Assembly (NCBI GenBank): GCA_043818335.1
Contig: JBDRFV010000019.1
Location: 1 to 41,460, forward strand
Source of the DNA: Patescibacteria group bacterium
GTDB taxonomy: Bacteria; Patescibacteriota; Minisyncoccia; Phycocordibacterales; UBA9973
Direction: 5' to 3'
Length of the DNA stretch: 41,460 nt
In this document: positions 3,580-9,630 of the stretch, one piece after another
Position numbering within the stretch: position 1 is the first letter of the stretch
Layout: every line of letters starts with the position of its first letter
Made by a program: the position numbers and the translations under genes
Notes under the pieces: generated by a model
Told to the model about the DNA's origin: nothing
Databases searched by the model: none
The model's input: the letters and a program-made list of their open reading frames with translations, nothing else

Positions 3580-5769
<2,190 letters not shown>

Positions 5770-5771
5770 AA

Positions 5772-7664
5772 TTATTTTTTCTCTTCAATTTCTTTTTTTA
5801 GTTTTTCTATAAAATCTTTAATAGAAATATTTTCTAATTTTTCCCCGCCTGCATCAGCTGTGTTGAAAGCATTGCGGGCAGGAGTTCTAGTTTCTACTGT
5901 TAGTTTTTCAGATTCTTTTTCTTTATCACCAATTACTATTACATACGGAATTTTTTGCATTTTTGCAGTACGAATTTTTTTACCCAAAGATTCATTTGAA
6001 GAATCTAATTCTACTCTAATATTTTCATTTTTTAATTCTTTATAAATTTTTTCTGCATAATCAGTTTGTTTTTCACTTATTGGAAGAATTACAACTTGCA
6101 CAGGTGATAACCAAAGAGGGAAGGCGCCAGCATAATGCTCTATCAAAACTCCCATAAATCTTTCAAACGAACCAAGAATTGCAACATGGAGCACAACTAC
6201 GCGATGTTTTTTGCCGTCTTCGCCTGTATAGTCCATATTAAAATTTTCTGGCTGGTTGAAATCAAGTTGGATTGTAGTTAGTTGCCATTCTCTGCCGATA
6301 GAATCTCTGACTTTTATATCAATCTTTGGTCCATAAAAAGCAGCTTCGCCTTCTTTAATTTCAAAAGGTACACCCCATTTTTTTACTGATTCTTCCAAGA
6401 TAGCTTCAGCTTTTTCCCAAATTTCATCTTTTCCAAAATACGCTTTTTTATTTTTTTTATCTCTAACAGAAATTTCTACTTTATAATTATTGAAACCAAA
6501 AATTTCATAGGTTTCGCGCATTAGACCAAAAATCATTTCAATTTCTGATTCAATTTGGTCTTCAGTAACAAAATGGTGAGTATCATCTTGAGTTATATTT
6601 TTAACACGCAATAATCCAGACAATTCTCCACTTTTTTCATTTCTGTATACAGTTGTATTTTCAGCTATTCTATATGGAAGATCTTTGTAACTATGAAGCT
6701 CAGAATTATAAATTTCAAAATGATGCGGACAGTTCATTGCTTTCATTACAAATTCATCACCGTTTTCATCTTTCATAACTGGCATCATGGCGTCATATTT
6801 TCCCATGTGACCACTTTTTATATAAAGTTCTTTTTTTGCAATATGTGGAATTGTTACAAAAGAATATCCTAGCGCTTCTTTTCTTGAGTAAATAAATCTT
6901 TCTAGCTCGTTTTTTATTATATTTCCTTTTGGTAAAAGCATTGGCAGACCTTTTCCTACTAATTCAGAAATTGTGAATAATTTTAATTCTTTTCCCAATT
7001 TTTTATGATCTCGTTTTTCTGCTTCTTCGCGCATTTTTTCATAATCTTCTAATTCTTTTTTATTTTCAAAAGCTAAACCGTAAATTCTAGTTAGCATTTT
7101 ATTTTTTTCATCTCCACGCCAATATGCACCAGCAACTCTATCTAATTTAAAACTGTCTGGATTTATCTCTTTTGTAGGATTTTCAGAATGTCCACCTCGA
7201 CATAAATCAGTAAACCCCGCCTTTGACGGGGCAAGCTCTCCAAAAGTGTATAAAGTAATTTTTTCCCTAAACGCTTCTTTAGAAGCGTCGGGCGATCCAG
7301 CTTTGCTGGATTTAGCCTCTTTATCTTTTATCTCTTTTATTAATTCTGTTTTGTATTCATTATCAGCGAAATATTTTAGCGCTTCTTTTTGTGTTTTTTC
7401 TGAGACTTTAAAACTTTTCCAGCTTTTCAAAATTTCTCGCATTTTCTTTTCAATTTTTGGCAGATCTTTATCAGAAATAGGGGATTTAAAATCAAAATCA
7501 TAATAAAAGCCATTTTCAATAACTGGGCCGATAGTGACTTTAGTTTCTGGATATAAATTTATTACGGCAGTTGCTAAAAGATGCGCAAGTGTGTGTCTAA
7601 TATTGTGTAGTTTTTCATTTGTTTCCATAAGTTTAATAATATCATATTCTTTTGCTTTTTTCAT
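5772..7664 (-). CDS. thrS: threonine--tRNA ligase (no N-terminal TGS domain)
   Basis: It has the editing-domain HxxxH (HNIRHTLAHLLA), GPVIENGFYYDF, DLCRGGH, a class II core and an anticodon-binding C-terminus (PLWLSPVQVVILPIS). The protein starts directly at the editing domain. Confidence 0.95.
   Translation of the reverse strand: MKKAKEYDIIKLMETNEKLHNIRHTLAHLLATAVINLYPETKVTIGPVIENGFYYDFDFKSPISDKDLPKIEKKMREILKSWKSFKVSEKTQKEALKYFADNEYKTELIKEIKDKEAKSSKAGSPDASKEAFREKITLYTFGELAPSKAGFTDLCRGGHSENPTKEINPDSFKLDRVAGAYWRGDEKNKMLTRIYGLAFENKKELEDYEKMREEAEKRDHKKLGKELKLFTISELVGKGLPMLLPKGNIIKNELERFIYSRKEALGYSFVTIPHIAKKELYIKSGHMGKYDAMMPVMKDENGDEFVMKAMNCPHHFEIYNSELHSYKDLPYRIAENTTVYRNEKSGELSGLLRVKNITQDDTHHFVTEDQIESEIEMIFGLMRETYEIFGFNNYKVEISVRDKKNKKAYFGKDEIWEKAEAILEESVKKWGVPFEIKEGEAAFYGPKIDIKVRDSIGREWQLTTIQLDFNQPENFNMDYTGEDGKKHRVVVLHVAILGSFERFMGVLIEHYAGAFPLWLSPVQVVILPISEKQTDYAEKIYKELKNENIRVELDSSNESLGKKIRTAKMQKIPYVIVIGDKEKESEKLTVETRTPARNAFNTADAGGEKLENISIKDFIEKLKKEIEEKK
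7215..7236. repeat. GC-rich hairpin element in frame in thrS
   Basis: CCCCGCCTTTGACGGGGCAAGC has a CCCCG/CGGGG stem. On the minus strand it encodes the extra ..ELAPSKAG.. just before the conserved FTDLCRGGH. It shares GGGCAAGC with the elements at 22650 and 23020. Confidence 0.6.
7271..7311. repeat. Second GC-rich double-hairpin element in frame in thrS
   Basis: Two perfect 7-bp stems, ACGCTTC-TTTA-GAAGCGT and ATCCAGC-TTTG-CTGGAT, are joined by CGGGCG. It encodes ..SSKAGSPDASKEAF... Confidence 0.55.
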
Positions 7665-7724: not shown

Positions 7725-8648
7725 ATGGAAAAGAATAAAGGATTTATAGGAATTGGTTTGATAATAGCGATAATCGTTGGTGTTTTGGTAGTCGGTGGTG
7801 GAGCGTATTATATTGGAACAAAAAATGATATTGTTCCTGAAAATATAAATATGGAAGAAAATAATCTTCCGCAAGATAATGTTGTAGATAAAAACACTAT
7901 AACTAACCAACAGACAAAAGACGAACAAGCATCTGTTCCAGAAAAAACAACAGGTCCTAGTTCACCTTGCGCTTCAACAGCTCAACCTTCAATTACGATT
8001 CTTTCTCCAAATGGAGGAGAAACTTATACAGCTGGTCAACAAATTACAATAAAGTGGACAAGTTGCAATCTTCCTTCCACAACACCAGTTGATATTTTAT
8101 TACAGGCTCAATTTTCTTCAGGACCATGGTTCGGCCCTTCTGGTTTGGCAACTTATGGATTACAGTCAACTCATACATTAAATTCTGGATCAACAACAAT
8201 TACTCTTCCAATACAAGGTTCTGGGCAATGGTATGGAAGTGCTACGGATATGACTTATGGCACATATTATAAAATATGGATTTCAGAAGGTACTATAATA
8301 CAAGGTCCTGGTATTAGCGATGTTTCTGATAATTTATTTACAATTCAAACACAAAAAAATCCAATTCTTACTCAAACTCAAGCAGAAAATCTTGTTCTAT
8401 TAAATTGGGGTGGTTGCACCCTAGATACTTGTGGGTCCGTTGTTGTAACAGTTCAACAAAATACTGAAGGACAATATGTTGTGACTGCAATTTACAAAGA
8501 ACTTCGAGATGATTCTATAGGATCACAAAAAAAAGAAGCAATTGTTTTATATCAAAATGGAGTTTGGGTGCTTGGACAACCAACTTTAACATGGGCATGT
8601 CAGTTAAATCGCGGGCATCAAGATTTTAGTACAGTTTTTTGTATTTAA
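7725..8648 (+). CDS. membrane-anchored or secreted surface protein with an SPNGGE...IxW Ig-like module
   Basis: 307 aa with an N-terminal hydrophobic anchor. The conserved block TGPSSPCASTAQPSITILSPNGGETYTAGQQITIKWTSCN is shared with the next gene. Confidence 0.7.
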   Translation: MEKNKGFIGIGLIIAIIVGVLVVGGGAYYIGTKNDIVPENINMEENNLPQDNVVDKNTITNQQTKDEQASVPEKTTGPSSPCASTAQPSITILSPNGGETYTAGQQITIKWTSCNLPSTTPVDILLQAQFSSGPWFGPSGLATYGLQSTHTLNSGSTTITLPIQGSGQWYGSATDMTYGTYYKIWISEGTIIQGPGISDVSDNLFTIQTQKNPILTQTQAENLVLLNWGGCTLDTCGSVVVTVQQNTEGQYVVTAIYKELRDDSIGSQKKEAIVLYQNGVWVLGQPTLTWACQLNRGHQDFSTVFCI

Positions 8649-8676: not shown

Positions 8677-9630
8677 ATGAAAAATAACAAAGGTTTTGGA
8701 ATGATAGCAGTATTAATAATAGTTGTTGCATTATTAGCATCAGGTGGAGTTGTGTATTATCTTAATAAAGATTTAAATAAAACTCCTGTAAATTTAGAAG
8801 ATGAAAATGTTTTGTTAGAAGAACAGGAACAGCAAAATGATTCAGAAGAAGTTTCTATTTTAGACGAATCAACTGGACCTAGTTCGCCTTGTGCGTCAAC
8901 GGCTGCGCCTTCAATAACTGTTTTGTCTCCAAATGGGGGAGAAACTTATACTGCGGGACAGCAAATTACAATAAAGTGGACAAGTTGTAACGGTGCTTCA
9001 AATTCTCAAGTAATGATTTCTCTTAAATCATCACAATCAGCTGGAAGTGAGATGGCAACTGTATCTGATTCCGGAATGGCTACTATTACTTTACCAACAG
9101 CATTGTATAGTGGAACAATTCCATTGGTGTCAGGAAAATATTATAAAATTGTTGCTCAATTAGGTGGAAGTGCAATGGGCCACATAGCTCCAACTGACGA
9201 ATCTGATAATTTATTTACAATAAATTCAAATTTGGCAGATGAAGATTGTTCTACATGGTTATCTTTTAATGATTTTGGAAATATTAAATATCCAAGTTGC
9301 TGGATAGCAAGTAATACAAAAGGAGGCAGTTATGGTACTTCCAACTTAACTGTTGGTATGTTATTAAAACCATCAGTAAATAGTCCAACAAGTGACAGTA
9401 TTAGTATTGGAGGATGGCAATACGGTTGTGAAAATGTAAATGTTTCTAGTGGAATGAGTCCAGCAACAAAAGCTTACTGCATACAATCAGAAGGAGGAAA
9501 TATTCCATGGACTGGTCAATATATAACTTCTATAAATCAGAACACTATTTACGGTATTCCAATGGTTACTCATTCAACAAATTCACAAGTGTTGAATATG
9601 TTTGATCAAATAGTTCAACATAATATTTAA
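8677..9630 (+). CDS. paralogous membrane-anchored or secreted surface protein
   Basis: 317 aa with the same N-terminal anchor type and the same 40-aa block (38/40 identical). The rest is divergent. Confidence 0.7.
   Translation: MKNNKGFGMIAVLIIVVALLASGGVVYYLNKDLNKTPVNLEDENVLLEEQEQQNDSEEVSILDESTGPSSPCASTAAPSITVLSPNGGETYTAGQQITIKWTSCNGASNSQVMISLKSSQSAGSEMATVSDSGMATITLPTALYSGTIPLVSGKYYKIVAQLGGSAMGHIAPTDESDNLFTINSNLADEDCSTWLSFNDFGNIKYPSCWIASNTKGGSYGTSNLTVGMLLKPSVNSPTSDSISIGGWQYGCENVNVSSGMSPATKAYCIQSEGGNIPWTGQYITSINQNTIYGIPMVTHSTNSQVLNMFDQIVQHNI

Follow-up and report, generated by a model that had tools for sequence, protein, structure and literature searches.

In Rickettsia, palindromic repeats inserted in frame into housekeeping genes are known as Rickettsia palindromic elements (RPE). 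They were described by Ogata et al. (2000, 2002; summarized in PMC10969869 and PMC3733652), and the classic RPE-1 measures ~100-150 bp. Di Nocera et al. (2013, PMC3733652) described repetitive extragenic palindromes (REP) of the GTAG/CGTC super-families, including the intragenic RPE-4 and RPE-6 and repeats of Opitutus terrae, with their REP-associated tyrosine transposases (RAYT), which are Y1/HUH enzymes. Short mobile inserts rich in guanine and cytosine (GC) also occur in mitochondria, as the GC clusters of yeast (PMC4464245, PMC8811140) and the byps of Magnusiomyces (PMC5009743). Here we describe thrS, the gene of threonyl-tRNA synthetase (ThrRS), in a window of 41,460 nucleotides (nt), the contig JBDRFV010000019.1 (C19 in our numbering) of a Patescibacteria group bacterium. 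We found that this gene has probably been struck three times, by three different families of GC-rich hairpin repeats of 21, 39 and 51 nt, which would be selfish elements of the REP/RPE kind translated as surface loops. In the literature we found no description of such elements in the Candidate Phyla Radiation (CPR)/Patescibacteria. What the present analysis adds is the coexistence of three families in one gene, their recurrence at the same site in non-sister lineages, and a locking to the sense strand that follows the gene.

The host genome (G000; 563 kb in 57 contigs, 31% GC, 82% complete) contains one strong match only to thrS, a 630-codon open reading frame (ORF) on the minus strand at 5772-7664. 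Its product carries the Pfam domains tRNA_SAD (editing domain N2), tRNA-synt_2b (class II core) and HGTP_anticodon (anticodon-binding domain) and lacks a TGS domain, and in the database listing its homologues bear the names Candidatus Nomurabacteria or Paceibacterota. The inserts were defined against the ThrRS of 28 related genomes and the 120 best database homologues (~150 orthologues). Insert A (7266-7316, minus strand) is a two-hairpin element of 51 nt that encodes AKSSKAGSPDASKEAFR (residues 117-133) and is laid out as GCTAAATCC-AGC-aaa-GCT-GGATCGCCCG-ACGCTTC-taaa-GAAGCGT-TTAGG. Its hairpin 1 spans 7295-7311 (ATCCAGC at 7295-7301, GCTGGAT at 7305-7311, loop of 3 nt) and hairpin 2 spans 7271-7288 (ACGCTTC at 7271-7277, GAAGCGT at 7282-7288, loop of 4 nt), neither being assigned to a strand. 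Insert B (7215-7235, minus strand), with the structure CTTG-CCCCG-tcaaagg-CGGGG, has 21 nt and encodes LAPSKAG (residues 144-150); in plus-strand coordinates its stem pairs CCCCG at 7215-7219 with CGGGG at 7227-7231. Insert C, CCTGCCCGCAATGCTTTCAACACAGCTGATGCAGGCGGG (5844-5882, minus strand), has 39 nt and encodes PARNAFNTADAGG (residues 595-607), and two substitutions weaken its apical stem. Each insert is seamless, has a length that is a multiple of three and contains no stop in the thrS frame, and their GC content (51% in A, 71% in B and 62% in C) contrasts with 30% for the remainder of the gene. An earlier note, made from this sequence alone, had located three stems inside the thrS coding region, where they indeed lie, but it counted two separate inserts: the stems of 7271-7311 form one element, and insert C was overlooked.

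That note had called for an alignment of orthologues, and in it the relatives lack the inserts. Insert A is missing from 27 of the 28 relatives and from 118 of the 120 homologues; taken site by site, each of the three positions is empty in 27-28 relatives and ~115 of the 120 homologues, and all three are empty in the six closest homologues (78-82% identical). Inserts A and B fall inside the N2 editing domain, between residues 165/166 and 175/176 of the Staphylococcus aureus enzyme (PDB 1NYQ), respectively, while insert C sits in a beta-turn of the anticodon-binding domain; every insert separates neighboring secondary-structure elements, in a turn or a coil. The 17-residue insert A had been assigned to an interdomain linker, which the alignment contradicts. 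Likewise, an insertion of ELAPSKAG had been read directly before FTDLCRGGH as the entry to the catalytic core; this insertion is real, with slightly shifted boundaries (LAPSKAG), whereas FTDLCRGGH is the editing-site motif of N2/tRNA_SAD, which aligns to D180-C182-H186 of E. coli and to 1NYQ 176-185. Insert B is thus two residues ahead of the editing-site Asp, a natural experiment on how much this site tolerates. The enzyme retains the editing residues HxxxH and DxCxxxH and the zinc ligands in CPHH, DDTHH and LHVAILGS in the alignment to PDB 1NYQ and 1QF6. For the roles of these residues we rely on E. coli ThrRS, in which D180, C182 and H186 are taken to form the editing site. The AlphaFold model, built from 52 sequences (mean predicted local distance difference test, pLDDT, 73.7), renders the inserts as coil with pLDDT <50 at 104-121, 133-135 and 585-593, model numbers being ORF residue numbers minus 12. 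Judging from the sequence comparison, the true start is probably Met13 (7628), 12 codons downstream of the ORF start, as nearly all ThrRS homologues begin at this position (METNEKL...), the extra ORF stretch being 7629-7664.

These sequences are not private to thrS. The genome contains 126 GC-rich hairpins (stem of at least 6 bp, of which at least 5 positions are G/C) compared with 0-3 in locally shuffled versions, far above chance. A scan for the two hairpin units of insert A, also suggested in the earlier note, recovered both exactly elsewhere, ACGCTTC-loop-GAAGCGT at C24:11976 and ATCCAGC-loop-GCTGGAT at C3:2732, and the whole two-hairpin unit reappears at C24:11944-12000 with 54 of 57 nt identical, the second full copy of A being C24:11948-11999. 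In total G000 harbors 16 copies of family C, 5 of family B, and 2 full plus 2 partial copies of family A. Related genomes also contain them: among the 201 genomes of the taxonomic family, family A (GCTAAATCC-stem-loop-stem-GGATCGCCCG-stem-loop-stem-TTTAGGGAA) is present in 11, with 1-5 copies each, and family C (consensus CCTGCCCGCAATGCTTTCAGCATAGCTGATGCAGGCGGG) in 21, where a single genome may have as many as 24 copies and 13 of 32 genomes within the genus are carriers; family B (CTTGCCCCG-N5-9-CGGGG), counted among 61 genomes of the genus, was found in 28. Reversed control patterns for the three families gave 0 matches in every search. The element families are spread over this AT-rich genome of Paceibacteria (Candidatus Nomurabacteria-like), and among its relatives their distribution is patchy. 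Two of the 16 family C copies of G000, located at contig ends, share identical flanks and may be one locus. Identical contig ends that include family C copies were observed at C32:43-81 and C40:61-99, at the end of C13 and the start of C23, and at C12:5081 and C22:43, which suggests that the assembly breaks at or near the repeats and that the copy numbers given here could be in error by one or two.

Relatives of element A were also observed in intergenic positions (C28:617-675 and C3:2709-2755); they retain the first hairpin and the GGATCGCCCG junction and have a different second hairpin (AACTTTTTTG.../GTCGCC...GGCGAC), a swap which suggests that element A is built in a modular way. Regarding insert B, the claim that it shares the 9-mer GGGGCAAGC with the elements of the trmD locus does not hold, since the trmD element has ACGGGCAAGGC and only GGGCAAG is common to both; the exact 9-mer adjoins hairpins on contigs C1, C3 and C43. 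Within the window, a 60-nt GC-rich patch with CGCCCG and GGCCCCGAGCTTG was observed near the 3' end of gyrB (5475-5535, plus strand), and it looks like a further in-frame hairpin insert of another family.

The same elements occupy the same sites in other thrS genes. At the site of insert A, the only other carrier is P0012, compared at the protein level. Element B appears at the same codon boundary in P0026 (L031; 21 of 21 nt identical) and in P0040 (L033; 18 of 21 nt), and element C at its site in P0010 (L032), P0037 (L034) and the P0050 group. Between carriers at orthologous sites, the inserts are identical in 109 of 120 nt (91%) versus 162 of 240 (68%) in the ten flanking codons on each side (Fisher p = 5.5e-7). 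In a maximum-likelihood tree of 121 ThrRS, built with the insert columns dropped, every carrier is a tip or a small clade whose sister is empty; at least 2 changes are required for A, 3 for B and 4 for C, and many of the separating branches have SH-aLRT support of at least 95. The thrS copy of C in G000 differs by 1 change from the copy on C42 of its own genome, compared with 5 from the L032 and 3 from the L034 thrS copies, and the L032 thrS copy, with a CT..AG stem variant, is 1 change away from a G187 copy. Copies at the same site are therefore not each other's nearest relatives. In addition, differing inserts, unrelated or decayed, occupy the three sites in L002, L010, L022, P0033, P0042, P0084, P0089 and P0097. 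From these sequence comparisons we infer that independent insertions may have gone into few permissive turns, aided by a slight bias towards sites followed by a GA(A/T) codon, which together with A-rich flanks is the only target signal found.

The orientation of the copies was a further point of the earlier note, which proposed that it is independent of that of the gene. This is correct for families B and D (the trmD type), both of which lie in either orientation inside ORFs, and it fails for families A and C. Within ORFs of at least 100 amino acids, where 13 of the 16 family C copies of G000, 37 of 41 in five other genomes and 13 of 15 family A copies are found, family C is in sense orientation and phase 0 in 13 of 13 copies in G000 and in 33 of 37 in the other genomes (46 of 50 overall), and family A in 13 of 13. 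Consequently, the peptide PARNAxxIAxAGG is encoded by 46 of the 50 in-ORF copies of C, and AKSxxxGSPDxSxExFRE by all 13 of A. On the sense strand of the C consensus phase 0 alone is stop-free, TGA and TAG interrupting the other two phases; two antisense frames are open but hold 3 copies only. With one of three frames taken as open, the binomial p for this choice of frame is 6e-19 for C and 6e-7 for A. The thrS gene itself is on the minus strand within a mostly plus-strand window, yet its insert copies are sense, and along one 174-kb contig of G187 the sense copies run + + - - + -, so that orientation follows the host gene and not the chromosome.

The stems of these elements covary. In the predicted 13-pair hairpin of family C, 94% of cells are paired versus 33-46% in slid controls, and 42 pair cells are doubly changed against 13.9 +/- 3.2 in shuffles, none of 500 shuffles reaching 42; as the copies are related and the search pattern fixes some stem positions, these figures are supportive and do not amount to a probability. 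In other genomes hairpin 1 of family A exists with the stems AGC/GCT, GCC/GGC, GGC/GCC, GAC/GTC, AAT/ATT and TTC/GAA, and hairpin 2 with the compensated variants ACGATTC/GAATCGT, ACAATTC/GAATTGT, ACTCTTC/GAAGAGT and ACGCCTC/GAGGCGT, while a conserved AGG Arg codon and the unpaired segments are invariant. Since the covarying positions alter the encoded residues freely, the constraint acts on the nucleic acid and not on the peptide. Consensus elements fold better than their shuffles (z from -3.4 to -3.9, the consensus of C being at -3.4), and so does insert A (-3.5), whereas the thrS copy of C reaches only -1.5. A search of thrS against Rfam gave only sub-threshold chance matches.

As in the case of RPE, these are palindromic repeats placed in frame in unrelated housekeeping genes of a small genome, with a conserved peptide per family, several families per genome, and insertion where the protein structure tolerates it. 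They differ from RPE in size (21-51 nt against the roughly 100-150 bp of RPE-1), in phylum (CPR/Patescibacteria), in forming GC-rich islands in a 31% GC genome, in placing three families in one gene, and in the recurrence of one element at an identical codon boundary in non-sister orthologues. With REP they share palindromes of 20-40 nt with stems of 5-13 bp, many patchy families, and some copies in gene loops: B has a stem of 5-6 bp, C has 13 pairs with internal loops, and A is a dimer-like pair of 7-bp stems. No GTAG/CGTC end tag is present in the consensus of C (CCTGCCCGC...GCAGGCGGG) or of B (CTTGCCCCGCC...GGCGGGG), and family A has GCGTC at its inner junction alone and on the other strand, an ambiguous case of a REP tag. 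Also unlike REP, which are extragenic, most copies of families A and C (~80% or more) lie within genes, and both G000 and G166 carry the repeats without a detected Y1 gene. The yeast GC clusters and Magnusiomyces byps are similar in being short mobile GC-rich hairpin inserts of an AT-rich compact genome that also enter coding genes, but these are organellar and not bacterial; as the thrS inserts preserve the frame and are stop-free, read-through and not bypassing would be expected here. IS200/IS605 TnpA Y1 transposition (PMC6006769) offers hairpin-defined ends, seamless insertion without target duplication and strand-specific behavior. Unlike in that system, no conserved 5' target tetranucleotide was seen, the elements carry no gene, and orientation is set per host gene, with at least 3 switches on the 174-kb contig, and not by the replication direction of lagging-strand targeting. 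Miniature inverted-repeat transposable elements were also considered and rejected, since no target-site duplication borders any of the three thrS inserts or the copies of family C, and since the elements measure 21-51 nt against 70-300 bp.

Different explanations were weighed against that of three insertions by selfish hairpin repeats. That the inserts are native, lineage-specific ThrRS residues with a coincidental hairpin potential has in its favor the open reading frame and nothing more; it is ruled out by the recurrence of the same sequences in other genes and genomes (one family in 21 of the 201 genomes), by the empty sites of the closest orthologues and by a GC content of 51-71% in a gene of 30%. 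A single old entry of each element into thrS, followed by precise loss in most lineages with survivors kept alike by selection on the hairpin or the peptide, would account for the inserts of differing sequence and length at the three sites, some of which resemble decayed remnants (TPARPLEG-AGG in P0050, DLPAVAGAS in P0089), and for the stem covariation, which indicates that the element sequence is under constraint. Moreover, Y1/HUH transposases of the IS200/IS605 type excise seamlessly. But dozens of exact in-frame losses would be required, since carriers are single tips or tiny clades with empty sisters (at least 2, 3 and 4 changes for A, B and C), and the same-site copies are not mutual nearest relatives, so that we regard this history as unlikely. 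Spread between thrS alleles of co-occurring Nomurabacteria, through DNA uptake and homologous recombination (gene conversion), is more doubtful still: it would explain an identical insert at the same codon boundary of distant thrS genes, but between G000 and L031 the 10-codon flanks of B are identical in 23 and 21 of 30 nt, close to the 71% of the whole gene, around an insert with 21 of 21, and no conversion tract is seen. Neither would it explain why dozens of unrelated genes contain members of these families.

The sense-strand locking of A and C, which tracks the host gene and not the chromosome position on the G187 contig, could instead mean that the hairpins are kept for a function in thrS mRNA (pausing, or sites for RNase or RNA-binding proteins) or the peptides as an interaction loop in the protein, that is, that the elements are domesticated. 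The nucleotide conservation of the inserts above that of the gene and the invariant AGG codon and unpaired segments of family A also agree with this idea. Nevertheless, dozens of unrelated proteins contain the same elements, at positions that do not correspond, the closest relatives manage without them, the apical stem is degraded in the thrS copy of C, the covariation changes the encoded residues freely, and no Rfam family matches; G.T and A.C half-pairs (44 vs 32) are uninformative for the strand of the functional hairpin and so single out neither. We therefore give domestication a low probability, somewhat below that of a single old entry. A last explanation, that the inserts are left untranslated by ribosome hopping, as with the byp of Magnusiomyces mitochondria or the gap of T4 gene 60, or are removed from the RNA, seems highly improbable. 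Mitochondrial bypassing does indeed act on inserts of precisely this type, GC-rich hairpins within the coding regions of AT-rich genomes (PMC5009743), but the three thrS inserts are stop-free multiples of three, the in-ORF copies of C (46 of 50) and A (13 of 13) keep the sole open sense frame, which would be needless if they were skipped, and there are no matching take-off and landing codons nor a stop after the upstream codon (GAG/GAA, GAG/TTT, ACT/GAA).

Insertion of three families of selfish hairpin repeats thus stays as the explanation that we favor. The elements would be read through, adding short Pro/Gly/Ala/Ser-rich loops to a still-functional enzyme; in this sense, lengths of 21, 39 and 51 nt and in-ORF copies that keep one stop-free sense frame suggest translation rather than skipping. 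The hairpin may be the feature recognized by the copying machinery, and selection would retain harmless copies only, namely those in permissive loops, in the single stop-free sense frame and with a benign peptide. Instead of being inherited, the inserts would have been acquired by thrS separately in several lineages, each time at the same codon boundaries. Several points weigh against this explanation. Both the transposition and the translation through the inserts are deduced from sequence patterns. Around 80% of family C copies are genic, whereas random insertion with purifying selection predicts mostly intergenic survivors; an extra assumption is needed, namely that intergenic copies are quickly deleted from these streamlined genomes or that insertion favors purine-rich motifs of the coding strand. 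Neither target-site duplications nor a clear target motif were found around the three thrS inserts and the copies of family C. The AlphaFold model, of moderate quality only, is also low-confidence at 256-347, a region unrelated to the inserts. Finally, a search for Y1 transposase genes found none in G000 (82% complete) and none in G166, listed as 100% complete, despite its 4 family C and 5 family A copies.

The last point concerns the mobilizer. Hairpin-dependent recognition by an HUH enzyme, as for REP, is the most plausible copying route, and the Y1/HUH transposase-like genes of the bacterial family are the most plausible candidates, albeit weak ones. Y1_Tnp genes, encoding ~220 residues, are common, being present in 103 of the 201 genomes with up to 10 per genome; the closest relative, L035, whose thrS sites are empty, has one (PF01797; 215 residues, 5118-5765) ~350 nt downstream of thrS. 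Y1_Tnp occurs in 18 of 21 carriers of family C versus 85 of 180 other genomes (p = 0.0009), a difference confounded by relatedness, and within the genus in 11 of 13 versus 13 of 19 (p = 0.42). No RAYT-like gene flanked by repeats of families A, B or C was found. As a separate observation, the sole DUF559 gene (PF04480) of G000, at C43:3678-4004, is bracketed by at least 5 GC-rich hairpins of other families (CCCCTCCCT..., GCTCCGAC..., CTCCTCCT...; C43:3594-4175), and no link of this gene to families A, B and C was found. An unlikely variant would regard A and C as gene-oriented "coding hairpin modules" with targeted insertion, homing-like but without an element-encoded nuclease. Here, for example, the substrate of an HUH enzyme might be the non-template strand of DNA under transcription, or motifs of the coding strand that are rich in purines, and independent CPR lineages would repeatedly receive one element at one codon boundary of the same essential gene.

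Beside thrS, two tandem paralogous genes lie on the plus strand (7725-8648 and 8677-9630). In both products a hydrophobic N-terminal segment is followed by the near-identical block GPSSPCASTAxPSITxLSPNGGETYTAGQQITIKWTSCN, and both are probably secreted or membrane-anchored.

Our findings suggest that essential and conserved enzymes of ultra-small bacteria are remodelled by selfish hairpins of 21-51 nt, and that one gene may hold three families of them. For annotation and structure prediction, such patches would explain many of the odd "lineage-specific loops" of CPR proteins. Furthermore, the recurrence at the same boundaries in non-sister lineages, together with the sense locking, points to a copying mechanism that is undescribed for REP or RPE.

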